This document shows positions 13,985 through 58,873 of a DNA stretch of 64,000 nt, piece after piece (the first letter of the stretch is position 1; each line of letters begins with the position of its first letter). This DNA comes from an uncultured Candidatus Saccharibacteria bacterium (GTDB taxonomy: Bacteria > Patescibacteriota > Minisyncoccia > Phycocordibacterales > 2-02-FULL-43-11): contig CAYGDO010000002.1 in the NCBI GenBank assembly GCA_964348785.1, positions 66,238-130,237 of the forward strand, in the 5' to 3' direction. A model generated the notes under the pieces. That model ran no database searches. It was not told the DNA's origin and saw only the letters and a list, made by a program, of their open reading frames with translations. The position numbers and the translations under genes are program-made.

Positions 13985-14773
13985 TTAATTTTCGGTTTTT
14001 GATTTATTGTAGATTTCCGCCACTATCGCCTTATGATCACTCACCCCTTCTATAAGTTCAACATTCTCAACTAAATAATCAGGAGTTGAAAACAGACCGT
14101 CAACCATTAACTTTAAATTTTTTACTCTGTGTAAATTCGGATCAATACTTGAATCATATTTAAGCGGTATATTATCTTTATATCTTAAAGCAATTTTATT
14201 AAAAATTTCACCTCCTCTTGGTGCATTAAAATCTCCACATAAAATCAACGACTCTTTTTTATCACAAAAAGACAATAGTTTTTCAACGTCTTTTTTCTGA
14301 AATTCATTCGCCTTACCATCTGGTGTCCAAGTGAAGTGTGTTGTCGAAATAAAATAACTAACACCGTTCTTAATAACTTCTCCAAAAATAATGACTTTTG
14401 CTTCAATTTCATTCAGTAAAATCAATTGATCCTTTGTCATTGTGGAACTAAAATTTAAATCTTTTGGATCCCAACATTTTACAGAACTCTCATCACCCAC
14501 ATAATAAAATTTTTCTATATTCTTAATTTCAAATTTTGACAAAATTGCGACACCAACTGTATGTCTTACTCCATTTTTTATATCCCAGATAACCATCGGA
14601 GAAAAAACACCAAATACACCTAATTCTTTTTTCAAAGACAAAAAATCTTTTTCTGAGACTTCCTGAAGACAAATTACTTCTGGATCAAATTTATTGAAAA
14701 AATCTAAAACACTACTCAGGTGTTTATCTATTTCAATGTTTATAGAAACAAATCTAATAAAATCTTTGGGCAT
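13985..14773 (-). CDS. endonuclease/exonuclease/phosphatase (EEP) family protein
   Basis: 'VICLQEV', 'CGDFNAPR', 'SDHKAIVAEI' EEP catalytic motifs. Confidence 0.75.
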   Translation of the reverse strand: MPKDFIRFVSINIEIDKHLSSVLDFFNKFDPEVICLQEVSEKDFLSLKKELGVFGVFSPMVIWDIKNGVRHTVGVAILSKFEIKNIEKFYYVGDESSVKCWDPKDLNFSSTMTKDQLILLNEIEAKVIIFGEVIKNGVSYFISTTHFTWTPDGKANEFQKKDVEKLLSFCDKKESLILCGDFNAPRGGEIFNKIALRYKDNIPLKYDSSIDPNLHRVKNLKLMVDGLFSTPDYLVENVELIEGVSDHKAIVAEIYNKSKTEN

Positions 14774-14775
14774 CT

Positions 14776-15750
14776 TTAAAAATCAACACCGACAAGTTTT
14801 CGAACTAATTTCATTTTTTCTACCGCCTTAGATTTTGCCTTTTCACCTCCCTCTTTCAAAATTTTCAAAACACCAGCTTTATCCTTTGCAAACTCTTTTC
14901 TTTTTTCACGAAGTGGAGCAATAAAAGCAATCATGTCAGCCAACAATGCTTCTTTTAGATCTTTATATTTACCCTTTTTCTCTTCATAAAAAGCATCGAG
15001 ATATTTTTTATCTCTAAAGAGTTCATGTATTGCATAAACATTCTTTGGCAAATCACCGGTTGAATCAGTCACAATACCCATAACTAAAGTTTTAAGTTCG
15101 CTATCTTCGGCAAAAAGCGGGATAGTGTTTCCATAGCTTTTAGACATCTTTTGTCCATCAATGCCAGGAATTGTTTTAACAGATTCCAAAATCAAAGGTT
15201 CAGGCAATTTAAATGCTTCTCCAAAAATTCTGTTAAATTTTTCTGCTGTATCTCTTGCATATTCAACGTGTTGCTTTTGATCTTGCCCCACAGGCACAAC
15301 ATCCGCGTCATAAAGCAAAATATCCGCTGACATCAAAAGCGGATAATCAAAAGTACCGACAGAGACTTCCTTACCTTTCGCCATAGCGTCTTTGTACGCA
15401 TGAGCTCTTTCAAGATAAGGCATAGTAGTAATGCAATTAAAAATCCAAGCGAGTTCAGTGTGCTCAATAACATCTGATTGTTTAAATAAGGTGACTTTTT
15501 TTGGATCAAGACCTAATGCCAAGTAATCCAAAGCCAAATCAACAATATTTTCTGAAAGTTCTTTACCATTTTGAAGAGTGGTCAAAGCATGATAATCAGC
15601 AATAAAAACGTAAGAATCATGATCATTTTGCAAATCAACAAATTGTTTCATCGCGCCAAAATAGTTGGCAATATGAGGCCTGCCAGTTGGCTTAACGCCT
15701 GAAAGTAAAATTTTCTTTGAATTCATAAACTCAATGTTATCAGAAACCAA
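14776..15750 (-). CDS. trpS: tryptophan--tRNA ligase
   Basis: About 324 aa class I enzyme. 'SGVKPTGRPHIANYFGA' and 'KMSKS'. Confidence 0.9.
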   Translation of the reverse strand: MVSDNIEFMNSKKILLSGVKPTGRPHIANYFGAMKQFVDLQNDHDSYVFIADYHALTTLQNGKELSENIVDLALDYLALGLDPKKVTLFKQSDVIEHTELAWIFNCITTMPYLERAHAYKDAMAKGKEVSVGTFDYPLLMSADILLYDADVVPVGQDQKQHVEYARDTAEKFNRIFGEAFKLPEPLILESVKTIPGIDGQKMSKSYGNTIPLFAEDSELKTLVMGIVTDSTGDLPKNVYAIHELFRDKKYLDAFYEEKKGKYKDLKEALLADMIAFIAPLREKRKEFAKDKAGVLKILKEGGEKAKSKAVEKMKLVRKLVGVDF

Positions 15751-15829
15751 CTTTTTGAGAAAGAGTTGATTTAGACATACATGTCTTATTTATTTTCTAC
15801 AAGGTTCGACCTTGTAACTTTGAATACTA

Positions 15830-15997
15830 CCAACCATAAGGATAATAGACGGTTAACTCCACAATGTCCCCTTTTGTGTCTGTGGATAGAGTAATGGAAC
15901 CGAAGTGGTCGGTGAGGTGATATGAAAGAGCGGGAGATGGGGTTACTTCTACAGCTTTGGTTTGTTTTACTGCTCCGCCTTTTTTGATGAGTTAGTC
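15830..15997 (-). pseudogene. orphan remnant of an RHS core start (no start codon, begins right after a stop, ends 'YYPYGW*')
   Basis: About 165-nt duplicate, roughly 75% identical, of main-gene segment 17205-17362. Translates to 'IKKGGAVKQTKAVEVTPSPALSYHLTDHFGSITLSTDTKGDIVELTVYYPYGW'. Main-gene counterpart reads '...LIKKGGTIRQLKPIDLTSSSSLSYHLIDHLGSITLSTDTAGKVVELIDYYPYGS'. Confidence 0.6.
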
Positions 15998-16356
15998 CAA
16001 TAGTAAAGTTTAGTAGAATCAGTTGGATAATCACCTCCGCAATCTTTGTCTTTTTGGGGATCCACAATTTTATCAATTTCAACATCAAACATCCGCCAAC
16101 TGGGATTCTTAGCGTACGTATTGTCCCCCCTCTTTTCGTGACTAATAAAATGGCGCTCACTGGCACCGAAATTCTTAAAATTGTCCTGTGCCTGAAGTAA
16201 AGAAACTTCATTGGCTCCCAAAGTTTCAACAAACTTTAGTTGAGAAATGTCATCCTCCCAATTACAAATCGGGCAAATTTCGTAGTGTCCGGGAGGTTCT
16301 GAAAATACATCATACCCACAACACGGGCAAGTGAACATTGTTTCGTCTTTTTTCAT
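15967..16356 (-). CDS. CPCC-family cysteine-rich protein, putative cognate immunity protein of the upstream RHS toxin
   Basis: Literal 'CPCCGYDVFSEPPGHYEICPICNWEDD'. Starts 5 nt after the stop of the 2417-aa toxin gene. Confidence 0.6.
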   Translation of the reverse strand: MKKDETMFTCPCCGYDVFSEPPGHYEICPICNWEDDISQLKFVETLGANEVSLLQAQDNFKNFGASERHFISHEKRGDNTYAKNPSWRMFDVEIDKIVDPQKDKDCGGDYPTDSTKLYYWTNSSKKAEQ

Positions 16357-16361
16357 ACTAA

Positions 16362-19300
16362 TTACTTTAAACTTTTAAGTAAGCTCTTCAAACTGTTTGA
16401 GAGAGACTGCAAGTTGTTAATTAATTGTCCAGCTTGACGATCAAAATACGCCTGACCTGCTGACGGCTTAAAAAATGTATTGATGACAGTACCACCAGTT
16501 TTAGGATTAATTTGAAAAACCGCAAAAGAGTTCGACAAAGAATCGTAGGCCCTTGCCACACCTCCAGCATCTATTTTTAGTGAAGTTTTACCATTCATTG
16601 CGTCAGTTACAAAATCTCTAGCACCTTTTATATACTCCTTAGTATTTTTAAATCCAAATTTCTCTGCATGTTTCCCAGCATGATAAATTGCATTATCGGC
16701 CAACGTTAACTTGGTTCCTTTACTCCAGATACCCTCAAAGACTGGCACCACTTTCCCCGCGGGTATCTCCCCCGCAGTCAATGCCCCAACGGCCGCCATC
16801 CCATAATTTCCTTTATCTACATCATCTATTACTTGGCTGACAGCAACTTGCCCAAGTGGAGTGAGTAACGATTGGGCAAAGGAAGTTATCTGTGGAGCGT
16901 ACATTGTCAAAACCCCTGCAACAGCCACTAGAGCTGGAAGAAACCTCCCATCCGGGTCTTTGTAAGTTACGGGATTATTACCTCCATACGAATACGAATT
17001 CTGAACTTGAGGATTTAAAAGAGCTTCCTTCCCTTCTTTACTCATCCCCACTTCCCAAAACACCGGATCCTGATTAAGAAACTGCCCTCTTGCTCCATCG
17101 TAGTAACGAGCATTAAGGTAAGAAAGTCCTGTACTTGCATCAAACTCCTGCCCTATATACTTCCTCTGTTCTTTTGGAGAACCTCCTTCATCTGCCCTAA
17201 TACTACCATAAGGATAATAGTCGATTAATTCCACAACTTTACCAGCGGTATCTGTGGAGAGAGTAATAGAACCAAGGTGGTCGATTAAGTGGTAAGAGAG
17301 AGATGAAGATGACGTTAGGTCTATAGGCTTTAGCTGGCGGATTGTTCCTCCTTTTTTGATTAAGACGCCACCTCCTTTCTTAACTAGAAGCTTGGAGGCT
17401 TTGAGGTTGATGTAGAGAGTGGAGTCTGCTGTGACAGTAAGAACTTTACCTACAGGGACAATGACAGAAGCGGGAGCGGTAACGGAGCCCACAATAGTAC
17501 ACGAAGAAATCAGCGTGAAATCTCCTGTTTCTGGAATAACACAAGTACCAGCGTTTGCATTTGTTAACTTTGGAGCTACGGGTGTCTTTTTGTCAAAAGT
17601 GGAGAGTAACGTGTCGCCCACAAAAACGTGAGAAGTCTCGGACACAACAACGTCGTCAGAATTGTATCCTGCGTTGAAGTATTTAGATGGATACAAAGTA
17701 ACACCGCCTTTCCCATCAGAAACCTTCACCCTAGCGCCTCCGTGATCATAAGCGTAAGTGGAAGTGGCGAGACCGTTTGCAACAGAAATTAGGCGGTTGT
17801 TGTAGTCATATATATAGGAAATATTGCCAAACGAAATCAAATTACCACTTTTGTCGTAAGAGAGAGTGTTGGTTGCCACAGAACTACCGGTAACCGTCGA
17901 CGCGTGGGGGTTGGCGTAATCGGTACCATCATAAAAATAGTTAGTAGTTGTAAACTTCCCCACAGCACTACTAAATGGGGTATTTTCATTAAAAATAGGA
18001 GCTCCGAAAGCCGTGAGATGGTATGCATTCGCCGTAAAATCGTAATAATTATTGCCAAGTTTGTAGTAAGCAACAAGATTGGCCTCATTCCCACTCAACT
18101 CAGTAAGATAATTGCTATCCAAATCAACAAGCGAACGACTTGTATTCCAAAATCGGACATCGTCAACAAGACCGTCCCAATTATGCGGATTTGGGAAAGT
18201 GGCCTTACCGATAGCCAATTCATTAAACCCGCCATAACCTCTACCGACAGCAAGAGTGGGGCCTTTCACCAAAGTATGCCCGCTGCTAGTTGATGTTGCC
18301 AAATACAAGTTCATTTCTGTGCCATTGTAAGTTCCGACAATATGGTACCAAGAGCCGACAGAGAGGGTGGTGTCATAAATTATTCTTGCCCCCCCAACTC
18401 CTTCTATATGCCTGTCAAAATTAATGTGGTGAGATCCGTCAGTATAGCTTGTAGATAAAGAGTAACCGACATTGGTCACAGCATCCTGTTGAGACGCAAT
18501 AATATTGAACCCAGCGGAAGGCAAACTTTCAGGTTTTATCCAAGCCTCTATAGTAATAGGTCCCCCAGAAATACCAGCATTAGTTGGGACGGAAGCATAC
18601 TGACTAGAGTCTCCTTCAACATCTAAAGAATATGGGTTGAGTGAAACTTGCCCTTCAATTTTACTAATAATATTTCCAAGCGGATTGTAAGCAAAAGATT
18701 GTTGATTTGGCGTCGCCAATGCATCTACCAATCGATACAAATCATCATACTTATACGTCGCGATTTTCTTTGTGTTGGTTTCCGAATTATCCACAATCTG
18801 CAAAATATTTCCGACAGAATCGTAAGTGTAGGACAAATTTTGAAGTTGTAAGTTGTTAGCTGAAAGAGTCTTTTTATTTGTTAAGCGATAAAGTCGCGCT
18901 GGATCATAGGTATTTGTAGCAACAACACCATTACCATAAGTAATCGTTTTTAGCTGACCAAGTGGCGAATAATCAAAAGCGCCGATTTGCGTTACAGGTG
19001 TAGTTGTGGAAACTCCAGTTGCCGATATTGAATCAACTAAACCTGCGGAATTGTATATGTATGAAGTTTTTTTGGAATCAACGCCGGTCATTTCTGTCAC
19101 ACCTCCTCCTAAATTGTAGAGATAACTTGAAATGAAAGTTTTACCTCCAATAATTTTAGTTTCAGTTTTTGCTTGCCCCGCGGGGGTGTATGCGTAGCTA
19201 GTACTATTCATTTCTAAATTTGCCCCGACAGAATCATCGGCATAAGAAACCGCACAAAGCTTACCGATGCCGAAATCACAGGCGTCATAAGTGTAAGTTG

Positions 19301-22300
19301 TCCTAACACCTACAGGGATAGTTGAAATTGGAGAAGAAGCTGCCTCAATTTTCCCCAATCTATTCAACGAATCGTAAGTATAAACTGTTCGCGTACCATT
19401 CGGATCGGTTTTCCCCGTAAGATTGCCGACATCGTCATACTGATATGAGTAAACCCCGAAAGCGGTGTCACTTGGCGTGTGCAAATCTTCCGCCAAAAGT
19501 CGTCTACCGGAAAAGTCATAAGTGAAATTACGAATATTTTGAAGCGCATCTGTGATTTTTACAAGATTTCCTAAAGAATCATATTCATAAAATGTGGAGT
19601 AGGTGTCGGGATAATTAAATTCATCCACACGAGTAAGTCGGCCAAAAACATCTTTATAATATATTTTACTTTTACCGAGCGTGTCGGTAATTTTTGTCTG
19701 ACCGGGACTGAAATATGTATTGGTCGTCCCTAAAGCGTCAGTTTTCTGCACATTCCTACCGAGTGCATCATAAGTAAAGCTAGTATACAAAGAACTGTCA
19801 CTCGTGGCAGAAGTTTTACCTGAACCGTCACTAAAATATGGCAAAGATTGTTTTCCAACGCGACCCTCAGAATCATAAATTATGTCTGACACAATAAAAG
19901 TATTGGGATTTTCAGATTGTTTTCGAGTTTGTATCTCCCTACCAATGCCATCAAAATAAGTGTAGGTTTCGTTTGAAAGAGTACTGTTTATGAAATCAAC
20001 TTTTTTAACAGAAATATTATTTGGAGTATCTGTGTATTGATAAATTGTTTTTGTCACTAAAGAAGCCGAAATACCCGAAACCACGACGGAATTTCCGTCA
20101 GGCTGTTTTTCTTGAAGAGTACGGCCAAAAGCGTCGTATGCTTTGGAATAAATTTGATTATTTGAATCGGTGATTTGAATTGGCTTTCCTAGAGCGTAAT
20201 CGTAAAGATAAGTGGTTTTTTGATTCAAATGATTAGTGACTGAAATCGGAAAAAGATTGTATGTGTCGTAAGAATAACCGGTAGAATTTCCATTTGCATC
20301 GGTTGATGTTGCCACAAGCGCAAACGGATTGTATGTTGCAGAAGTAATGGAATACCTACCATCAGAAATCAAAGATTCTTGTTTTGTGCCATTGCCTTCT
20401 AAAAGTTGACCAAAAGGTAAATCATCAAAATATGTTTTTGATTCCGAAATCACATTTCCAGATTGCGAATTAGTAGTTTTATGAGATACCTCGTAATGAA
20501 TTTGTATTGAAGTTGAAGTGGAAACGCCCGCGTTTGAAGCGTACTCAACATTAGTTATAGTTTTGTCATTTCCAATATCAACAAAAGAATAAGAAGCGAG
20601 CGTGTTTGTTGACGCGGAAGTTACCTCGCCATAATCAACAGAAGAAATTAAATTGCCATTTGAGGTATCGTATGAATATTCCGTAGCGTGATCTTTGTGA
20701 GAAGTCGTGCCGTCAAAACTTTCTTCAATCTTTTTAGAAAGATACACAAATACCGGTGCGGAAGAAGTAAAGCCTGCTGAATTTACTCCCGCTAAAGGAG
20801 ACTCACTATAAATATTTTGATTTCTGGCGAACAACTTACCCTCCCTATCAAAAACTTCTGTTTTATATACAGAGCCGATTTTGCCGTAACTATCCCCTGT
20901 TTCTCCAGTTGAAGAGTTATCACCATTCCCCTGATGAAAATATGAAATTGTCACAGATTTTCCGGAATCTTTTGTAACCTTGCCAAATCCGGCAAATTTT
21001 CTATCGTGCGAACCGTTAAAAAATCCTTGCCCATCTGCGTAAGTGTATGTATCTACTTGTGGCTCTCCACCCACGCCATCGGTTGTAGTTATTTTGGACA
21101 CAATCCAAAGAACTGTTGGCAGTTTTAGATTAAACCGCTCACCCGAAGCGGAAGTTTTGTAATCAATAGATGTTTTTCCGCCTTGCGGGTAAGTTATAGT
21201 TTTTAAAATATCCGCTCTTGTTGTGGGGCCACTTGGAATATCAACGAGGGTGTCACCGTTGGTGTCATAGTAGTCGGTCAGTTGATAGGAAAAATTCCAC
21301 TTCCAATTGTAAGGATTTATTTTAATAAAATATGGAGACTTGAGGGTTGAACTTTTTACAAATCCATTTCCTGTATTTATGTAAACTTCATTATAATCCC
21401 CTGTTGTGTACCCGTTATCAAAATTTGGGTTGTTTGGCAAAACCCAACCACGCAAAACATCAACTAGCCCGTCAGCGTTAATATCCAGATACCGAACCCC
21501 CATATCATTACCGTCACCATCAGTCATCATTAATGTGTGGTCAGGTGAATCACCAAAAATAGGAACCATTGGTCCAGTTAACCCCCCATCTCCAGTACCT
21601 ATACGAAAAGAACTGTATCTATCGCTAGTCTTTGTATCATCTAAACCATCACCATTAACATCCATCGCACCCACTCGCCTCCTCTCCTCCCACCCAGATA
21701 TTTCGCGTCCATAAATTTCTGGTAGGCCATCTCCATTTGTGTCTGCAACGAAAGAGCCTTTGGCTACTAGCAAAGGAGTGGTAGTTGATATGTATGTATA
21801 ACTATTATCCAAACTATTAATACCGCTATTCAGATAAAGTGTCGGTGGATTGGGAGGAGGAGGACAGGTGGCGTTGGTACAACTACCTGCATTAAAGAGT
21901 GTAACCGGAACACCGAAAAAATCAGTTAAACCGTCACCATTCAAATCCGCAATACGCGCACCACTATCCTCTGGGCCTGAACCGTTTGAACCCCTAGTAT
22001 GATAAGCAAATCTTAAATTAGGTAGGGAATTTGAACCCGCTACGCCTAACTTGTTCCACTCCACCTGAATATTAAAACTATTTGATTCATAAGGGTTAAT
22101 TCCAAGCACAAATGAATCTGTGTAGCCATCACCATTCAAATCAGCATAAACATCTCCCCCTCTTTCTGGACCGTAAAAGAAAGAGCCGAGAGCCCAACTA
22201 AACGTACCGGATGAAATAGCAGGCTCAAGCCCCGTCGGTAAAACAGGATTTTCAAACCCCTTCGTGTACTCAAAAGTTGTTTGCGGTAAAGTTGTTGCAA

Positions 22301-23615
22301 CGTTTTGGGAGTCGTAGCCAGTTTCAGTAATTCCTGAAAGGATTGAACGTACGCCGTTTACACCAACTCCGTAGGCAAATTCGTATTTCTTTTTCAAAAT
22401 ATCACTGACACGAATTTCAATTATTTTGAGTCGTTTGGCATTGGTACTTAAAAATGCAAACTTGTATGAAGAAATAGCACTGTCTGAACGAGTATCTTCA
22501 TATACAAAAGTGACTTTGTAAATTCCAGATACAACTTCTCCGGAATTTGCCTGATGATTGGTATAAGTAATTTCAGTTGGATATACCTGACCGCCAGTTA
22601 CCGTATAGTTATATGAAATGTAATTACCGTTTGAATCACGGACTTCATCTAGATACCATTTAGCAACACGAGAAGCATTTGCAGGGTCCGCGTTTCGTGA
22701 AGTTGCCACCGAACCGAAAGTGTAGACTCTGCCGTTTTTATCATAAACCTTCCAACTCGTAGTGGTGGCGTTGTAAACATATTTCAAAAATTCGCCGGAA
22801 TCAACGCGAGGTTGATATAAACCAGCAATTGTAGTTGAGGCTAATTCACCGGATAAGCTGGAACTGAAATAATCTTGACCATACATTACTATATTTCCCT
22901 GCTTATTGATTCTCTCAATTGATGGAATGTTAAAATCCCAACCATACCCCATCGTATTTATGTTGGAATTCTCGGACGAGTTATATGAAATATTTAAAGA
23001 TGTCTCAACACCTGCCCTACCGGAAGGTGTAACAATCGGATAGGAATATGAAAGCGCTCCCGAGGAAGCATTGGCTTCGGGAAGAGTGGTTTTTCTATAA
23101 GCAAAATTGGAATTATCGTAAGTGGTTGGCTTGTTTTCCAACTGAGCGCTAGTGGCTTCAATTTCTGGAGGTAACAAGTCTTGCGCGTCCGGAGAAACCT
23201 CTGGAATTTCAGTGTCCAACTTTGGAGCTTCCGGAGCAATCTCGGGCACCACTTCAGTTTTTGGATTTGCATCTACAGTTGTTTCGGGAGTTATTTGTGT
23301 CGGGTCAGGTAAAATAGTAGAGCCTATTTCAGAATTTTCTGATGCAGAACTGCTTGGTGTTGATGTATCAGGAGAAACGTTGGTCTCAGCTGGGGTAGAT
23401 GGAGATGCAGTTTGGTCAGAGGAGGTTTCAACGGAAGCTACGGGGACAGGAGGTTGCGAAGCAACCTCCTGCGCAAACGCCACAGCAATCGGTTGCATTA
23501 AAAAAGCAACCACCAAAAAACTGGTTACGATTTTTTGCGTATTTGATTTTCTTATTTTCTTTGTAGAAACAATTGAAAAAAAGAAATTCATAGAATTTTT
23601 ACTGACACTTCCCAA
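16362..23615 (-). CDS. Tc-toxin-like TcB/TcC fusion / RHS polymorphic toxin: signal, S/T/P linker, SpvB domain, FG-GAP beta-propeller, YD repeats with LamG insertion, RHS core, C-terminal toxin domain
   Basis: SpvB-like N-terminal region. 'ADLNGDGLTD/DVNGDGLDD/LDINADGLVD' FG-GAP repeats. Many YD repeats ('YTYDALGR','YEYDSLGNL','YQYDDVGNL'). RHS core 'YHLIDHLGS...YYPYG...RYYDGARGQFLNQDPV...NPVTYKDPDGRF'. About 195-aa tip follows. Confidence 0.85.
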   Translation of the reverse strand: MGSVSKNSMNFFFSIVSTKKIRKSNTQKIVTSFLVVAFLMQPIAVAFAQEVASQPPVPVASVETSSDQTASPSTPAETNVSPDTSTPSSSASENSEIGSTILPDPTQITPETTVDANPKTEVVPEIAPEAPKLDTEIPEVSPDAQDLLPPEIEATSAQLENKPTTYDNSNFAYRKTTLPEANASSGALSYSYPIVTPSGRAGVETSLNISYNSSENSNINTMGYGWDFNIPSIERINKQGNIVMYGQDYFSSSLSGELASTTIAGLYQPRVDSGEFLKYVYNATTTSWKVYDKNGRVYTFGSVATSRNADPANASRVAKWYLDEVRDSNGNYISYNYTVTGGQVYPTEITYTNHQANSGEVVSGIYKVTFVYEDTRSDSAISSYKFAFLSTNAKRLKIIEIRVSDILKKKYEFAYGVGVNGVRSILSGITETGYDSQNVATTLPQTTFEYTKGFENPVLPTGLEPAISSGTFSWALGSFFYGPERGGDVYADLNGDGYTDSFVLGINPYESNSFNIQVEWNKLGVAGSNSLPNLRFAYHTRGSNGSGPEDSGARIADLNGDGLTDFFGVPVTLFNAGSCTNATCPPPPNPPTLYLNSGINSLDNSYTYISTTTPLLVAKGSFVADTNGDGLPEIYGREISGWEERRRVGAMDVNGDGLDDTKTSDRYSSFRIGTGDGGLTGPMVPIFGDSPDHTLMMTDGDGNDMGVRYLDINADGLVDVLRGWVLPNNPNFDNGYTTGDYNEVYINTGNGFVKSSTLKSPYFIKINPYNWKWNFSYQLTDYYDTNGDTLVDIPSGPTTRADILKTITYPQGGKTSIDYKTSASGERFNLKLPTVLWIVSKITTTDGVGGEPQVDTYTYADGQGFFNGSHDRKFAGFGKVTKDSGKSVTISYFHQGNGDNSSTGETGDSYGKIGSVYKTEVFDREGKLFARNQNIYSESPLAGVNSAGFTSSAPVFVYLSKKIEESFDGTTSHKDHATEYSYDTSNGNLISSVDYGEVTSASTNTLASYSFVDIGNDKTITNVEYASNAGVSTSTSIQIHYEVSHKTTNSQSGNVISESKTYFDDLPFGQLLEGNGTKQESLISDGRYSITSATYNPFALVATSTDANGNSTGYSYDTYNLFPISVTNHLNQKTTYLYDYALGKPIQITDSNNQIYSKAYDAFGRTLQEKQPDGNSVVVSGISASLVTKTIYQYTDTPNNISVKKVDFINSTLSNETYTYFDGIGREIQTRKQSENPNTFIVSDIIYDSEGRVGKQSLPYFSDGSGKTSATSDSSLYTSFTYDALGRNVQKTDALGTTNTYFSPGQTKITDTLGKSKIYYKDVFGRLTRVDEFNYPDTYSTFYEYDSLGNLVKITDALQNIRNFTYDFSGRRLLAEDLHTPSDTAFGVYSYQYDDVGNLTGKTDPNGTRTVYTYDSLNRLGKIEAASSPISTIPVGVRTTYTYDACDFGIGKLCAVSYADDSVGANLEMNSTSYAYTPAGQAKTETKIIGGKTFISSYLYNLGGGVTEMTGVDSKKTSYIYNSAGLVDSISATGVSTTTPVTQIGAFDYSPLGQLKTITYGNGVVATNTYDPARLYRLTNKKTLSANNLQLQNLSYTYDSVGNILQIVDNSETNTKKIATYKYDDLYRLVDALATPNQQSFAYNPLGNIISKIEGQVSLNPYSLDVEGDSSQYASVPTNAGISGGPITIEAWIKPESLPSAGFNIIASQQDAVTNVGYSLSTSYTDGSHHINFDRHIEGVGGARIIYDTTLSVGSWYHIVGTYNGTEMNLYLATSTSSGHTLVKGPTLAVGRGYGGFNELAIGKATFPNPHNWDGLVDDVRFWNTSRSLVDLDSNYLTELSGNEANLVAYYKLGNNYYDFTANAYHLTAFGAPIFNENTPFSSAVGKFTTTNYFYDGTDYANPHASTVTGSSVATNTLSYDKSGNLISFGNISYIYDYNNRLISVANGLATSTYAYDHGGARVKVSDGKGGVTLYPSKYFNAGYNSDDVVVSETSHVFVGDTLLSTFDKKTPVAPKLTNANAGTCVIPETGDFTLISSCTIVGSVTAPASVIVPVGKVLTVTADSTLYINLKASKLLVKKGGGVLIKKGGTIRQLKPIDLTSSSSLSYHLIDHLGSITLSTDTAGKVVELIDYYPYGSIRADEGGSPKEQRKYIGQEFDASTGLSYLNARYYDGARGQFLNQDPVFWEVGMSKEGKEALLNPQVQNSYSYGGNNPVTYKDPDGRFLPALVAVAGVLTMYAPQITSFAQSLLTPLGQVAVSQVIDDVDKGNYGMAAVGALTAGEIPAGKVVPVFEGIWSKGTKLTLADNAIYHAGKHAEKFGFKNTKEYIKGARDFVTDAMNGKTSLKIDAGGVARAYDSLSNSFAVFQINPKTGGTVINTFFKPSAGQAYFDRQAGQLINNLQSLSNSLKSLLKSLK

Positions 23616-24840
23616 TACAAATATCTCCGTCCGACACTAAATTCCCTGATAGTTTTATATCCCCAGCAACATCGAGTTTTGCCCCTGGAGTAGTAGTTCC
23701 GATTCCCACCCTACCCGTAGACTTTACTATAAGATATGAAGAAGAATTAATATACACGTCCCCTTTTGGTGGCGCGCCGACAGTCACATTATCAGCCGAA
23801 CTAAAACTAATAACATTTCTTTCGGTCCCAGAAGAATCTTTAAATTTTATAGATTGGCTATTATCAAGCAGTATGCTACCGCCACTTATGGTGAGTTTTT
23901 GAGTGGGCGATAAGGTACCTATACCTAATTTACCCCCAGTAAATACCATGTCTGGAGTAAGAGGATTAGAAACAACATTAGCAGTTAAACCAGTAGGGGT
24001 ATACCATCTAAAATCTGTAGCGGTATTTAATTGAACAGTAGCTGCCGTGCCAGAAGGAGTCACTCTATAACCAGCGCTATAAGATGGTTTACCTCCGGTA
24101 GACTGTAAAAACTCATTATTACCAGTCGTGTCGGTCATATATGTACCAAGATTTACATTATCTCCCCCTGTTGCACCTGAAGTTAATCTTAAATATCCTC
24201 CATTCAAAGTTAACCTCTCTGACGGTGAAATCGTCCCGACACCAACATTACCGGTTGAACCGACTATTACCATTCTTGACAGATGACCAGCCTTAAAATT
24301 AATGAGTGAGGTATAATCACCGAAATTAATTGGCAATGTGGTCTTACTGCCTGCCCCACCTGCAAAATAGAAACCAGTTGGATCCATACCAGCAATAATC
24401 TCTCTGTTTCTGTTTGAGAAAATATATCCACTAGTGGTATTACCGATACCAATACTACCGTAGGTTTCAAAAGGATAAAAAGGAGTTGTCGTACCCACCC
24501 CCATTCTTCCCGTCGTATCTATAGTAACTTTTGGATTGGAATTATTGGTGAAAAAATATAAATTGTGATTACTTTGAGTGCCTAGCCAACCACCAGGAAT
24601 TGAAGTATTCCAAACAAAAGTACCCATTTTCACCAAACCGTCTGTATGAACGAGACCATACTTACCGGTAGCTGTTTTTATAGTGAGAGGGCTTTCTGGA
24701 GAAGTCGTCCCGATACCAACATTACCAATGTTAGTATTGTAAATATTATTACCATTACTTTGCCAAAAAGCATCAGCAAAATTAATGTCCAAAAGAGTTA
24801 GAGTTGATAAAAAGACAACCAAAAATATTTTTTTATACAT
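23599..24840 (-). CDS. secreted repeat protein with tail-fiber-like 'G(N/S)VGIGTT(S/T)P' repeats, first gene of the RHS operon
   Basis: Signal peptide. Seven or more 'VGIGTTSP/ VGVGTISP / LGIGTLSP / VGIGTTTPGAKLDV' repeats. Ends 'DICIGKCQ'. Overlaps the RHS gene start by 17 nt. Confidence 0.6.
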   Translation of the reverse strand: MYKKIFLVVFLSTLTLLDINFADAFWQSNGNNIYNTNIGNVGIGTTSPESPLTIKTATGKYGLVHTDGLVKMGTFVWNTSIPGGWLGTQSNHNLYFFTNNSNPKVTIDTTGRMGVGTTTPFYPFETYGSIGIGNTTSGYIFSNRNREIIAGMDPTGFYFAGGAGSKTTLPINFGDYTSLINFKAGHLSRMVIVGSTGNVGVGTISPSERLTLNGGYLRLTSGATGGDNVNLGTYMTDTTGNNEFLQSTGGKPSYSAGYRVTPSGTAATVQLNTATDFRWYTPTGLTANVVSNPLTPDMVFTGGKLGIGTLSPTQKLTISGGSILLDNSQSIKFKDSSGTERNVISFSSADNVTVGAPPKGDVYINSSSYLIVKSTGRVGIGTTTPGAKLDVAGDIKLSGNLVSDGDICIGKCQ

Positions 24841-24983
24841 TTTTAAAATAGATGCCTATTTTACACAGGCAAGCTTTATATACGAGGCATTGATAAATCC
24901 GTCGCTTATAGTACCACTTTTAAAAATCAAGTCAAATTTAAAACAAACTAGATGCTACCAAAAATACCAAATATGAGAAAGTC

Positions 24984-25325
24984 TTATCTATTCAATTCGT
25001 CCTCTAACGATATAATGTAGATCTTATTAGCTACCAACCCCGAAAATTGCCCTCGAGAAGCGTTCATTGGATTAACACTTTCTAAACTCAATCTATAATT
25101 ATTAAAATAATTTTTTAAAACTTTTACATCATCACCATCTTTAAAATTTTTCAGAGTCTGCCACATATACATATCCTCTATATTTAAATCTTCAGAATTA
25201 AAACCTGCCAAATGTGAAGTCTTCCCGGAAACAGCCTCATCCTCGGAAAACTTGCGCATTTCATCTTTAAATACAATAAGCTTCTCCATCTCTAAATTTT
25301 GTTCACCTTGTTCCATATTTGCCAT
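24984..25325 (-). CDS. hypothetical protein
   Basis: ORF only. Acidic, no recognizable motif. Confidence 0.35.
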   Translation of the reverse strand: MANMEQGEQNLEMEKLIVFKDEMRKFSEDEAVSGKTSHLAGFNSEDLNIEDMYMWQTLKNFKDGDDVKVLKNYFNNYRLSLESVNPMNASRGQFSGLVANKIYIISLEDELNR

Positions 25326-55465: not shown

Positions 55466-58400
55466 TTAATTTGTCACAACATCAGTAGAAGAGGCTGTCG
55501 GTTCTATAATCGCCGGCATAGTCGTAGTAGATATATCGATAACAGGTAAAGTTGTTGACGCTTGAGAGTTCGGATTAAAAACAACTACAGTCCTTGTGGA
55601 AGTGGCAAAATTCATCATTGAATCATGGGCAACCCAAACTACTTCATAGGTACCCTCTCTAGATGTGTCCACTGTGCTACTTGCCAAATCAGGCATCAAG
55701 CTTTGCCCTTTAGAATCTAAAGCTGTGGCCCCCAAATCAATATACGTAGAATTTAAAGCGATTTCTGATGGGTTATTACCAATAAGAGTAATGACGGGTG
55801 TAGAAGTTGATACTACATTTGTCTGATTATCAATTTTTATATTAGAAAATACAGTTTTAAATTGTTCTTTAGTAACACATATATCCTCCAAACAAAGTTC
55901 TTTAGTCTCAACTCGATCAAACACTCCTAAAACTGAAGTAATTTTTGAGCCCATCCACTCAGCAACATTTGAGACAAAACTAGAAACCGTAGAAGTTGAA
56001 ATTTTAGATTCTAAATTCAAAATTCTTGATTCAATATCATTTAGACGAATAGAAGAAAAAACCGGAACGGAAATTAAAGTTGAGGAGGCCGTTGAAGATG
56101 CAATGGAAAAAGTGCTTGTTGCCGTCTGCCTCATATTTAAAACTGAAGCCAAATCTTGAACCGCAGAAACTGTTAAAGCTGTTAAGTTGCCATAAGAAAT
56201 ACCTTTACTACCCTCTTCACCAGAAACCACTTCAGGAATTTCTTTCTCGATATCTTGAGCAATAAAACCTATTTGAGGTAAGTGGTTCCCTTTCATCTCA
56301 TAATAAACAGGTTTTAAATTTAAAATGGATTGAAAAGAATATTTATTATTTAAAGGAATAATATTTTCCTTGTACGAAATATCAGATGCGCTAGTCCAAG
56401 CTCCAGCAGCATTTAAAGTCGCAGTATTTAATGACCCCCCTGTATCTCCTCCCAAAAAGGACATTACCCCAGACGTATTCATATATATGCTACGAAAATC
56501 AGTATTACCCGTTTCAGCTATATAAAGACCGCCCGTTTGATCATTAGCCGATTGAGTAATTGATAATCTGGCAGTAGGCGATGTTGTGCCCAATCCAATA
56601 ACACCAGTATTTTTAACTATAAAATCAGTTCTAGTTGAGGAGCCAATAACAAAAGATGGTCCGCCTATGCTATTTGGATTTATAGAAAATTGACCCCATG
56701 GAGTAGTAGTACCAACACCTAAATTACCATCAGAAGATTGTGCATAAAAAGTCGGATATAAATTATTTATAAAAGTTGAAATATATGATGATGTGCCGTG
56801 GATCACATCCTTAAGGCCATCACCATTTACATCCCCGACTGCAATTGAATTACCAGCCCCAACCGTATTATAAAGTTTTCGTGTTCTGAAAGTTCCATTA
56901 CCATTATTAATCAAAACTGATATTTGAGCTGTATTATTATTAGGAATAACTATATCTGGCCTAGTATCATCATTTAAATCACCGATAGCTATAACGAAAG
57001 GATTAACAATAGAAATACTATAAGCAACAGGTGATGCCAAAGTTCCACTAGTACTTCCCATAAAAATTGATACAGTACTTGGACCATTTGCGTTTGTAGA
57101 AACAACGTCATCATAGCCATCACCATCGAAGTCATCTACTCCTACCCAATAAGGCTGACCACTATTTGGCGAATAATCCGTCCTTGTGGCAAGAGTCCCA
57201 TCACCATTATTTAAAAAAATAGAAATTTTTGAACTACTCCAACAAGCAGTTGCGACATCCAACCAACCATCACCGTTAAAATCACCAAAAGTTGCCCCTC
57301 TTGAAGCAGAAAGATTCGAATAAGATACATAAGATGCAAAAGTGCCATCGCCATTATTCAAAAGAACGGAAATACCGCTAGCTCCTTGTGCCACCGCAAC
57401 AATATCATTCCAACCATCCCGATTAATATCACCAATATCGACACCATTAGGCCCAGCGCCAGTTGAATAATCAACTTTATTAGCAAAAGTTCCATCACCA
57501 TTATTTATAAAAACAGAAATAGTATTCGCGGTATAATTCCCAACAATTACATCTTGCGAACCGTCATTGTTTACATCACCTATAATAGAATCAATAGGAT
57601 TTGTACCCGCAGTATAGGTTACAGGAGCAGATAACACACCGGAGCTATTTAAAAACACTGTCATATTACTATTTGTATAATCCACACCAACAGCGTCAAC
57701 CCGTCCGTCACCATTTAAATCAGCAGTTTTGTCTCCCAAGGCGGCGCCAGTTGCAGATAAATCTACTCTTGTAGCAAAACTACTATCCATTTTAGAAACA
57801 GTTAAACCGGATGGTCCATTAACCTTCAGAGAACCAGCAAAAGTAGACGTGGCATTATAAGTATTAGTAGTTAAATTACCAGAAACAAATGCGTCACCAA
57901 CCACAGTAAACTTAACAAAAGGTGAGGATGTACCAACGCCAACATTACCTCCATTAGTGACAACAAAATTTGTAGCGGTAGAAGAACCTATCACAAAAGA
58001 TGGTGTTGTTATGCCATTTGGATTTATAGAAAATTGACCCCAAGGTGTACTAGTCCCGACTCCGATTCTGTTATTAATAGAATCGACATATAAAGTCCCA
58101 GAATCAAAATTGACATCGCTTGAAATTGTAGAAGTACCCGAACTTAAAGAAACAGTGAGTACTCCAGAAATAGTTGTGGAACCGCCAGATAAAGCTCCAG
58201 AAAAATTTCCGGTAACACTATCTAATCCTCCAGTTAAAGTGATAGAAGAACCGGAAAAAGAAGAATCTGAAATTGTGGCTCCACTTATAGTAACACTCGA
58301 TAATTTATCTATTTTATTAGATAAAGATATAGCTTGATAAACAGGAGCTAAAGATAAAGAATTATATGCTTGCTGTTTTTGTTGTTGATTAGCAACTAAA

Positions 58401-58873
58401 TATTTTATTTCGCTAATTTGTCTCTCCAATTTAAGCTTCAAATCATTAACGGAATTATCTATATCATTTTGAGATACACCAGAAATTTCTATTGTTTTAA
58501 TAATTTTTATTTGAGGTTCTTTTTTTTCTTCGGGCACAATATCTTGTGATTGTCTTGGCGTTGTTGAACTAACAACCGTGTTTAAATTTGCACCAAAACT
58601 TAAAGAATTTACAGAAGCCGGCAAATGATTGACCTTATCAAGCAAAACTGAAAAAGATGCTGAGGTATGATTAAAAATTCTAACCACTGTTCTGTTAAAA
58701 TTTAAAGCAAAATAAAAAGGAGCTCTTAAAACTTCAGAAAATGAAAGGGCCGAAGCAAAAGAGGGTGAAAAAATAAAAGAAGTAAACACCAAAATAACCA
58801 AAAAAATGTTTAGATTATTTTTTATGCTTTTATTCCACATACTTAAGACAAAAAACTTTTTTATCTCGTTCAT
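55466..58873 (-). CDS. large secreted surface protein: tail-fiber-like GxGTxTP repeats, FG-GAP beta-propeller, peptidase-S74 intramolecular-chaperone domain, C-terminal Ig-like (DUF5011-like) domain
   Basis: Signal peptide. 'NRIGVGTSTPWGQFSINPN' repeated. Seven 'D(L/V/F)N(G/N/R/D)DG..D' FG-GAP motifs. 'SDISYKENIIPLNN...LKPVYYEMKGNHLPQIGFIAQDIEKEIPEVV' S74 chaperone motif. 'VITLIGNNPSEIALNSTYIDLGATALD' Ig-like. Confidence 0.7.
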   Translation of the reverse strand: MNEIKKFFVLSMWNKSIKNNLNIFLVILVFTSFIFSPSFASALSFSEVLRAPFYFALNFNRTVVRIFNHTSASFSVLLDKVNHLPASVNSLSFGANLNTVVSSTTPRQSQDIVPEEKKEPQIKIIKTIEISGVSQNDIDNSVNDLKLKLERQISEIKYLVANQQQKQQAYNSLSLAPVYQAISLSNKIDKLSSVTISGATISDSSFSGSSITLTGGLDSVTGNFSGALSGGSTTISGVLTVSLSSGTSTISSDVNFDSGTLYVDSINNRIGVGTSTPWGQFSINPNGITTPSFVIGSSTATNFVVTNGGNVGVGTSSPFVKFTVVGDAFVSGNLTTNTYNATSTFAGSLKVNGPSGLTVSKMDSSFATRVDLSATGAALGDKTADLNGDGRVDAVGVDYTNSNMTVFLNSSGVLSAPVTYTAGTNPIDSIIGDVNNDGSQDVIVGNYTANTISVFINNGDGTFANKVDYSTGAGPNGVDIGDINRDGWNDIVAVAQGASGISVLLNNGDGTFASYVSYSNLSASRGATFGDFNGDGWLDVATACWSSSKISIFLNNGDGTLATRTDYSPNSGQPYWVGVDDFDGDGYDDVVSTNANGPSTVSIFMGSTSGTLASPVAYSISIVNPFVIAIGDLNDDTRPDIVIPNNNTAQISVLINNGNGTFRTRKLYNTVGAGNSIAVGDVNGDGLKDVIHGTSSYISTFINNLYPTFYAQSSDGNLGVGTTTPWGQFSINPNSIGGPSFVIGSSTRTDFIVKNTGVIGLGTTSPTARLSITQSANDQTGGLYIAETGNTDFRSIYMNTSGVMSFLGGDTGGSLNTATLNAAGAWTSASDISYKENIIPLNNKYSFQSILNLKPVYYEMKGNHLPQIGFIAQDIEKEIPEVVSGEEGSKGISYGNLTALTVSAVQDLASVLNMRQTATSTFSIASSTASSTLISVPVFSSIRLNDIESRILNLESKISTSTVSSFVSNVAEWMGSKITSVLGVFDRVETKELCLEDICVTKEQFKTVFSNIKIDNQTNVVSTSTPVITLIGNNPSEIALNSTYIDLGATALDSKGQSLMPDLASSTVDTSREGTYEVVWVAHDSMMNFATSTRTVVVFNPNSQASTTLPVIDISTTTMPAIIEPTASSTDVVTN

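Follow-up and report, generated by a model that had tools for sequence, protein, structure and literature searches.

A probable TcdB/TcaC-type RHS polymorphic toxin-immunity module on a strain-variable island of a Paceibacteria genome

Introduction

Bacteria that belong to the candidate phyla radiation (CPR) have tiny genomes, and little is known of how these organisms fight rivals or exploit hosts. A locus in contig CAYGDO010000002.1 (GenBank assembly GCA_964348785.1) raises this question in a concrete form: does the very large RHS protein encoded there belong to a Tc toxin, to a weapon aimed at a host, or to a polymorphic toxin system with its own immunity gene? The window, i.e. the whole stretch of 64,000 nucleotides analyzed here (positions 66,238 to 130,237 of the contig; all coordinates below are those of the window), carries three co-oriented open reading frames (ORFs), all on the minus strand, that encode proteins of 413, 2417, and 129 amino acids (aa). 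They overlap or abut each other with the coordinates and lengths described in an earlier note on this DNA, which had been made from the sequence alone. The analysis presented below indicates that the locus is very likely a TcdB/TcaC-type RHS polymorphic toxin-immunity module, carried on a strain-variable island of a Paceibacteria (CPR/Patescibacteria) genome, as judged from sequence and model comparisons. This lineage thus appears to give 9 kb to a complete and apparently intact module of this kind.

Results and discussion

Domain architecture of the 2417-aa protein

The earlier note had proposed SpvB, FG-GAP/VCBS, RHS, RHS core (TIGR03696), Laminin_G_3, and Cys_rich_CPCC domains for the locus, and searches with hidden Markov models (HMMs) supported each of them. 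In the 2417-aa protein, these searches detected an SpvB domain close to the N terminus (aa 183-355, E 8.5e-16), an FG-GAP_3 match (aa 557-635, E 2.3e-6) within a propeller region with six DxNGDG-type motifs (aa 492, 557, 625, 652, 711, and 784), TcdB_toxin_midN (aa 796-883, E 1.7e-12), RHS_repeat (E 1.1e-29) together with YD_repeat and DUF6443, Laminin_G_3 (aa 1670-1828, E 1.2e-18), and Rhs_assc_core (TIGR03696; aa 2133-2223, E 1.4e-16). Among solved structures, TcdB2-TccC3 fusion constructs (4O9X, 6H6G, and others; E about 1e-17) were the best relatives by sequence, followed by Rhs proteins of type VI secretion systems (T6SS), while PDB chains of YenB, TcdB1, and SpvB matched the N-terminal aa 185-356. 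The domain matches, together with the TcdB2-TccC3 constructs as closest solved relatives, bear out the proposal of a single-chain TcB/TcC-type RHS cocoon. A teneurin-like architecture (FN-plug/NHL) was also considered and was rejected because the N terminus consists of SpvB and FG-GAP, as in TcB.

Ahead of the SpvB domain, a signal peptide ending in KKIRKSNTQKIVTSFLVVAFLMQPIAVAFA, with cleavage before QE, was read by eye from the sequence, and it is followed by the S/T/P linker that had been noted before and that does consist of S, T, or P in 55 of its 134 residues (aa 49-182). Three full-length homologues (P0143, P0145, and P0146), 32-38% identical to the toxin, were aligned with it (alignment A3), and the whole plan turned out to be common to all of them, i.e. 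signal peptide, low-complexity stalk, SpvB, propeller, shell, core, linker, and the same tip. Both the N-terminal hydrophobic segment and the DxNGDG motifs of the propeller were kept across this alignment. The shell of the window protein bears two insertions. Compared with P0143 and P0145, the window protein has the Laminin_G_3 domain as an extra segment, and the corresponding site of P0146 is occupied by an insert of another kind; lectin inserts similar to Laminin_G_3 are present in a Saccharibacteria RHS locus (L008), and we consider this domain a candidate receptor-binding module. The second insert (aa 2025-2097) occurs only in the window protein, opposite a gap in the other three homologues, and to the eye it looks like a beta-helix.

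The Rhs core carries D2183, D2220, and the motif P2215-xxxx-D-xx-G2223-R2224. The residues D2183, D2220, P2215, and G2223, which represent both TcC catalytic aspartates and the PxxxxDxxG motif, were invariant in the alignment. In TcC proteins, cleavage follows the PxxxxDxxG rule, and the P-1 residue can be Arg if P-3 is Asp, as in DTDGR of TccC3 from P. laumondii TT01 (Song et al., PMC7861908). Because the window protein reads DPDGR2224 at this position, the cut is expected after R2224, and such autoproteolysis would free the last 193 residues. The earlier note had let the core end in DPDGRF; this motif is indeed present (aa 2220-2225), but by the above rule cleavage is to be expected after R2224 and not after F2225.

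The tip and its CPCC partner

The fragment predicted to be freed begins with a hydrophobic linker of about 65 residues that is common to P0001, P0143, P0145, and P0146, and also to P0002, in which a different toxin follows it. The linker gave no match in Pfam, and its identification as PT-TG, which was considered, is likewise without support from Pfam. A Pfam search with the isolated tip at E values up to 10 returned only noise and no Colicin_D match, while phmmer linked the tip to PDB chain 8ey4_A, a CdiA C-terminal toxin (E 2.3e-5). A word-indexed homologue search with the tip found three proteins, and a full HMMER search of 1.84 billion cluster representatives with a profile of the tip domain (about 105 aa) found 2622. 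In all of these 2622 proteins, whose lengths span 83 to 2181 aa, the domain lies at the C terminus, and its scaffolds include SpvB-RHS, DUF6531-RHS, and PT-TG proteins, CdiA, and small lipoprotein-like proteins. On the first helix of the tip, H2312, K2315, and H2316 are conserved, a pattern resembling the [KH]K, Hxx[ED] signature that has been given for Tox-ColicinD (PMC3482391). The tip is accordingly assigned as a BECR-fold RNase of the colicin D type, from which its activity and substrate are deduced. Because the window tip has no Pfam Colicin_D match and Colicin_D (PF11429) matched only one of 45 family members, and that one weakly (E 6e-4), the term tRNase is inferred from the fold, according to which a tRNase is the most likely identity.

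A member of this tip family was also seen in an archaeal RHS locus with several fragment ORFs (Archaeon GW2011_AR15, DPANN, CP010425.1; L015 5659-15856). There, the ORF at 14089-15429 ends in the same H..KH..FG / TYFKP toxin family and is followed by an unrelated 156-aa ORF, not by a CPCC gene.

What, then, would protect the producing cell? The toxin stop codon is separated by exactly 5 nt from the ATG of the gene for the 129-aa protein, which matched Cys_rich_CPCC (PF14206) with an E value of 1.5e-26 (92.4 bits against a cut-off of 24.5), possesses the cysteines of a zinc ribbon (C10, C12/C13, C28, and C31; CPCC...CPxC), and ends in a C-terminal extension with the pattern YP.D.T.LYYW. It also matched PDB chains 8ey4_I (E 4e-11) and 8ey3_A (E 2e-10), both deposited as 'Cys_rich_CPCC domain-containing protein'; 8EY3 contains the immunity protein by itself. 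The title of the 8EY4 entry is 'Contact-dependent growth inhibition toxin-immunity protein complex from E. coli O32:H37', and its chain I is the partner of chain A. Since the window tip resembles 8ey4_A and the CPCC protein resembles 8ey4_I, the two are homologues of the two halves of one solved cognate pair, and the earlier proposal that the CPCC gene provides immunity was thus strengthened. We found no relevant paper in the literature on 8EY4, 8EY3, PF14206, or CPCC immunity; a CASP14 paper covers a different complex of contact-dependent growth inhibition (CDI).

The gene order was also found elsewhere. A CPCC gene lies 4 nt after a related tip in locus L002 and 5 nt after one in L003, while in L006 the tip, which is more distant and sits on a DUF6531-RHS protein, is followed by a CPCC gene of full length. 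These toxin-linked CPCC proteins are 45-56% identical to each other over their full length, including the YP.D.T.LYYW extension. In L004 and in the second module of L002, related tips are followed by a different small protein, and the N terminus of this second family can be aligned with the zinc ribbon of the CPCC proteins (hhalign probability 77%, E 2e-5). L002 (1-3891; GCA_964372465.1) is itself an array of orphan RHS C-terminal modules, the first composed of a 303-aa core and tip fragment with a CPCC gene, the second of a 408-aa fragment that combines a PT-TG domain with a related tip, together with a zinc-ribbon gene (100 aa) of the second family.

Could the CPCC gene nevertheless encode a small zinc-ribbon protein with some other cellular role that lies downstream of the toxin gene by chance? 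A scan with the CPCC alignment yielded 422 relatives in metagenomes, and the neighborhoods of the best 80 of them (L089-L168) were surveyed with the tip-domain HMM, which recovered all eight positive controls at E values of 1e-25 to 1e-35. The proteins in question are 40-53% identical to the window protein, i.e. as close to it as the toxin-linked copies. They stand alone beside metabolic and other genes, with aldolases, dehydrogenases, hydrolases, and integrases upstream and one upstream neighbor with a T6SS immunity domain. It follows that membership in the CPCC family does not by itself mean immunity. Stand-alone CPCC genes may be orphan immunity genes kept for defense, or the role of the family may be a different one, with only part of its members serving as immunity proteins. 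For the window gene, however, a chance neighborhood seems very unlikely in view of the 5-nt spacing, the occurrence of the same pairing in four independent loci on different scaffolds, and the crystallization of a CPCC homologue bound to a homologue of the toxin (8EY4). We therefore predict that the 129-aa gene is the cognate immunity gene, from its homology to 8EY4 and the gene order and not from family membership.

Relation to known toxin systems

The architecture is not an unusual one, as it matches the 'TcdB/TcaC' class of polymorphic toxins that Zhang, de Souza, Anantharaman, Iyer, and Aravind described in 2012 (PMC3482391) as proteins with a signal peptide, SpvB, an integrin-like propeller, and RHS repeats. 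In that work, the class was found in many bacterial phyla and in Euryarchaeota, and tips of the colicin D type were listed. The window locus shares with it the signal peptide (read by eye), SpvB, propeller, RHS repeats, a variable C-terminal toxin of a family that also occurs on other delivery scaffolds, and a downstream immunity gene, for which the 5-nt gap, the adjacency in L002, L003, and L006, and the homology to the 8EY4 chain predict a protective function. It differs from the published description in three respects, namely (i) CPR/Patescibacteria are not among the lineages listed there, (ii) CPCC is not among the immunity families listed there, and (iii) its shell bears Laminin_G_3 and a second insert. 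Given that this architecture has been on record since 2012 and occurs widely, the locus serves as a useful example and not as a new kind of system. The architecture class, natural B-C fusions, and the structure of a toxin-immunity pair were all known already; new are the host lineage, the explicit connection of this tip family with CPCC immunity beyond E. coli, and the island with its scar.

The class is broadly distributed. In a scan of genome contigs, relatives of the toxin among the matches listed came from many phyla, including Gammaproteobacteria, Saccharibacteria, Omnitrophica, Elusimicrobia, Actinomycetota, Bacteroidota, and myxobacteria, as well as from DPANN and other archaea. The best genome match to the whole toxin among those listed was L007 6001-14230 (CAZRDY010000002.1; 34% identity, aa 27-2289), which is labeled as a metagenome-assembled genome of an uncultured gammaproteobacterium. 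A literature search for RHS/Tc toxins in CPR bacteria yielded a passing mention of Rhs genes and no paper describing such systems.

The resemblance to the BC subcomplex of Tc toxins (TcdB2-TccC3, 4O9X; YenB/YenC2, 4IGL) is nonetheless close. SpvB is followed by the propeller, TcdB_midN and a YD cocoon are present, and the TcC-type core has its two aspartates, PxxxxDxxG, and DxDGR at P-5 to P-1 as in TccC3, so that the same cleavage is predicted; the putative Sec signal peptide and the S/T/P stalk, in turn, set the window protein apart from that subcomplex. A natural B-C fusion is known from Burkholderia pseudomallei, which likewise forms a single polypeptide. One may therefore ask whether this is a true ABC-type Tc toxin, whose propeller would be docked by a TcA encoded elsewhere and whose tip would be injected into eukaryotic cells. 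The domains SpvB, propeller, TcdB_midN, and RHS core, the closest solved relatives, and the Burkholderia fusions speak for it, as does the fact that the contig, at least 170 kb long, is covered by the window over only 64 kb. However, no TcA-like gene was found in the 64-kb window, as the earlier note had also remarked for the vicinity of the toxin gene, and none lies beside the toxin homologues in L003, L004, and L005. Moreover, the predicted cargo, an RNase of the antibacterial type, is accompanied by an immunity gene, and such a gene is normally missing for TcC cargoes directed at eukaryotes; the same class occurs in many phyla without known Tc complexes, including DPANN archaea; and Zhang et al. 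treated it as separate polymorphic toxins (PMC3482391). Taken together, an ABC-type Tc toxin appears extremely improbable.

The CDI complex 8EY4 provides homologues of both the tip and the CPCC protein, but the two systems differ in scaffold and in the immunity protein. The E. coli toxin is presented on a CdiA filament and exported by two-partner (type V) secretion, whereas the window scaffold is an RHS cocoon, for which neither haemagglutinin nor PT-VENN domains appeared in the Pfam output. While the immunity protein of E. coli has only 65-70 aa, that of the window is prolonged at its C terminus by a conserved stretch of about 55 aa that ends in LYYW. With colicin D/ImmD (1V74, 1TFK, and 5ZNM), the tip has in common the BECR fold and a colicin D-like topology; it differs by the missing Colicin_D match, and the immunity protein is unrelated, being a CPCC zinc ribbon rather than ImmD.

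A further comparison is offered by WapA of Bacillus subtilis, a Sec-exported RHS toxin of a single-membrane bacterium with tRNase tips and adjacent immunity genes. It has cell-wall-binding repeats, lacks the SpvB and propeller module, and is a model for delivery without TcA, T6SS, or CdiB. In contrast to WapA, no wall-anchoring domain was found in the window protein.

The 413-aa protein

The first ORF encodes a protein with six G-x-[VMIL]-G-[IV]-G-[TN] (GxxGIGT) repeats and a putative signal peptide, MYKKIFLVVFLSTLTLLDINFADA, with cleavage before F, which was read by eye. It had no Pfam match and, in particular, does not carry the C-terminal Peptidase_S74 (a chaperone domain of phage tail spikes) that many of its homologues possess. 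It matched PHROG tail-fiber families (phrog_9942, E 1.6e-12; phrog_18345, E 1.8e-11), and many of its 1569 homologues have Peptidase_S74 or collagen repeats. An AlphaFold2 model of the protein was poor (pLDDT 63.7), and since this is so, its Foldseek matches to phage tail fibers only echo the signal in the sequence.

The earlier note had suggested that this protein may substitute for the absent TcA or for a receptor-binding partner, and we considered whether it is a functional partner of the cocoon, be it as an adhesin, a receptor binder, or a TcA stand-in. Gene arrangement is in favor of a connection. The 2417-aa ORF starts with TTG, with GGAG upstream at a suitable distance, and then overlaps the 413-aa gene by 17 nt; 24 nt inside this start, at 23591, there is an alternative ATG, 7 nt past the stop of the 413-aa gene, and the hydrophobic N-terminal segment of the toxin is kept with either start. 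The 413-aa gene is probably co-transcribed with the toxin gene and lies physically within the island described below, its product may be secreted, and tail-fiber repeats are among those listed for polymorphic toxins (PMC3482391). Against this, in 85 related SpvB-RHS/tip loci, which were covered with up to about 6 kb of flanking sequence, tblastn revealed no homologue; unrelated genes stand upstream of the RHS homologues in L003, L004, and L005; the family is large and generic, mostly of the phage tail-fiber or Peptidase_S74 type; the GC content of the gene at third codon positions (GC3) is like that of the host, in which it differs from the genes for the toxin and the CPCC protein; and the protein shows no similarity to TcA. 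A role as functional partner is therefore unlikely, and the idea of a TcA replacement is left without support because a homologue accompanies none of the 85 loci. The protein resembles a generic repeat protein of the phage tail-fiber kind, and any role of it in the system is hypothetical.

Genomic setting, island, and scar

The window consists of housekeeping DNA with genes for aminoacyl-tRNA synthetases, MurG, FtsW, DnaK, and DnaJ (GC 32-36%). Almost all genes between 3.1 and 60 kb are encoded by the minus strand, and there is a strong GC skew except across the toxin gene. The nearest named relatives of its DnaK are those of Candidatus Paceibacterota and Taylorbacteria (76-81% identity), and this is why the assignment to CPR, which the earlier note had made from the appearance of the genome, holds, with a place in Paceibacterota near Taylorbacteria.

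A syntenic relative (L086; GCA_964625375.1), with 75-88% nucleotide identity, has a 113/114-aa gene that is followed after 76 nt by the gene for TrpRS (trpS). The 9.2-kb block with all three genes of the locus is absent from it. In L086, TrpRS (518-1437) was called as two ORFs, split at a run of X, which is probably an assembly gap rather than a pseudogene. Within the block, the toxin gene has a GC3 of 0.331 (z +2.7) and the CPCC gene one of 0.377 (z +4.3), against a background of 0.257 +/- 0.028, whereas the 413-aa gene, with 0.278 (z +0.8), is like the host background.

Directly after the CPCC gene, a 156-nt stretch is 72% identical to 17205-17360 and corresponds in frame to toxin codons 2086-2137. 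It encodes IKKGGAVKQ...SYHLTDHFGSITLSTDTKGDIVELTVYYPYGW followed by a stop and overlaps the last seven CPCC codons in another frame; by its sequence, it would be the start of an older Rhs core. In the usual course of C-terminal displacement, a new cassette of core, tip, and immunity gene recombines into an rhs gene and the previous 3' end is pushed downstream. The remnant here and the array of orphan modules in the related locus L002 agree with such a displacement, and most of the older rhs 3' end would since have been deleted. These signs of recent acquisition and tip replacement suggest that antagonism shapes the populations concerned.

Proposed mode of action and its weighing

On these grounds, the following mode of action can be proposed. 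The 2417-aa protein would be exported by Sec, as its signal peptide indicates, and would fold outside the cell into a single-chain TcB plus TcC cocoon built of the detected SpvB, FG-GAP propeller, and YD shell domains, with the Laminin-G lectin of the shell probably facing outward as a binding module. The aspartyl protease of the Rhs core (D2183 and D2220) would cut after DPDGR2224 and leave within the shell a free 193-aa fragment composed of the hydrophobic linker and the colicin D-like BECR RNase, whose homology and fold point to a tRNase most of all. The CPCC zinc-ribbon protein would bind and neutralize this RNase, as expected from the 8EY4 homology of both partners and the conserved gene order. 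Delivery would proceed without TcA, with the Sec-exported RHS toxins of Gram-positive bacteria, of the WapA type, as nearest precedent, and the present tip and immunity gene would have been installed by recombination in the core-coding region, a process that left the scar of the older 3' end.

In which cells would the toxin act? The need for an immunity protein argues for action in a prokaryotic cytoplasm, and targets could be competing or sibling cells or a host bacterium. CPR bacteria live attached to hosts, and the RNase of an episymbiont might cripple or kill a host bacterium or archaeon, in which case the immunity protein would protect the producer only before export. Glycans on the host surface could be bound by the lectin insert, comparable proteins are found in further episymbiotic lineages (Saccharibacteria and DPANN), and a DPANN RHS protein carries a tip of the same family. 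However, tips that vary between strains, scars of displacement, and arrays of orphan modules (L002) are what competition between close relatives classically leaves behind, and the stand-alone CPCC genes, widespread as they are, have the look of orphan immunity genes kept for defense in many free-living bacteria. A host-aimed system is consequently a possibility to be entertained only tentatively. Rather doubtful, although conceivable, is a broader idea, according to which single-chain BC-type cocoons with a Sec signal and without TcA, from Paceibacteria, Saccharibacteria, and DPANN, form a distinct TcA-independent delivery class that docks on a partner cell through lectin inserts, perhaps with the help of a tail-fiber-like protein, and passes the RNase into a host or rival upon a trigger other than TcA.

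Several points weigh against the interpretation of the locus as a polymorphic toxin-immunity module on an island. Activity, cleavage, export, and binding are all deduced from sequences and models, and the opening of a closed BC-type cocoon without TcA and the entry of its cargo are not explained by the data. The assignment of the tip has to reckon with the missing or weak Colicin_D matches described above. A CPCC gene follows only five of the eight tip-family toxins with downstream sequence, and no tip-family toxin was found on either strand at the best 80 of the 422 CPCC loci, 59 of which have at least 350 nt of upstream sequence. Finally, the island was deduced from a single relative, L086. 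The toxin-immunity reading remains very likely in our opinion, and it offers a pair that can be tested, namely an RNase like that of colicin D and a zinc-ribbon immunity protein of the CPCC family, for which a solved structure sets a precedent. The locus also adds a case to the question of how BC-type cocoons release their cargo without TcA.

Features of the locus and its surroundings

The features of the locus are collected in Table 1. The C-terminal helical tail of the toxin is longer than in its homologues.

Table 1. Positions of the genes, protein regions, and island in the window (aa, residues of the 2417-aa protein).
Feature	Coordinates	Strand	Basis or remark
413-aa ORF	23599-24840	minus	
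2417-aa toxin ORF, single-chain TcB/TcC-type RHS cocoon toxin	16362-23615	minus	
129-aa CPCC ORF	15967-16356	minus	
Putative Sec signal peptide, aa 1-48, AFA/QE cleavage site	23472..23615	minus	by eye
S/T/P/E-rich low-complexity stalk, aa 49-182	23070..23471	minus	55/134 residues S, T, or P
SpvB (TcB N-terminal) domain, aa 183-355	22551..23069	minus	Pfam; PDB matches YenB, TcdB1, SpvB
FG-GAP (integrin-like) beta-propeller region, ~aa 490-800	21216..22148	minus	FG-GAP_3 and six DxNGDG
RHS/YD-repeat shell, including TcdB_toxin_midN (aa 796-883) and DUF6443	17220..21230	minus	HMMs, PDB matches
Laminin_G_3 (ConA-like lectin) domain within shell, aa 1670-1828	18132..18608	minus	Pfam
~70-aa insert, aa 2025-2097 (CVIPETGD...KKGGTIRQLKP)	17325..17543	minus	gap in other homologues
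Rhs-associated core, predicted aspartyl autoprotease plug, aa 2133-2224	16944..17219	minus	TIGR03696
Hydrophobic Gly-rich pre-toxin linker, aa 2225-2290 (MYAPQITSFAQSLLTPLGQ...KGNYG.AA.G..TAGE)	16746..16943	minus	conserved in homologues
Toxin domain, aa 2291-2395, BECR-fold colicin D-like RNase	16431..16745	minus	
C-terminal amphipathic helical tail, aa 2396-2417	16365..16430	minus	
Strain-variable island (413-aa, toxin, and immunity genes, Rhs-core scar)	15751..24983	minus	between 113-aa gene and trpS
Truncated Rhs-core remnant, C-terminal displacement scar	15833..15988	minus	direct repeat of 17205-17360

A promoter scan of the region gave 30 sites against 24.7 expected, which is no better than shuffled sequence; one plausible -35/-10 pair lies at 24935-24908. 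Terminator-like sites numbered 19 against 7.9 in shuffled sequences, and most of them fall within coding sequence. No tRNAs, Rfam families, or tandem repeats were found in the region, and the 64-kb window as a whole is likewise without a tRNA gene or an Rfam family. Just upstream of the island, a gene at 24984-25325 (minus strand) encodes an acidic protein of 113 aa that has no family match and is conserved in L086. Apart from the toxin, the ORFs of more than 600 aa in the window encode DnaK, alanyl- and leucyl-tRNA synthetases (AlaRS and LeuRS), and a protein of 1135 aa with surface domains (55466-58873, minus strand). The latter contains six FG-GAP_3 domains, Peptidase_S74, and a bacterial surface Ig-like domain, and is thus a second large surface protein that combines propeller and tail-fiber elements.

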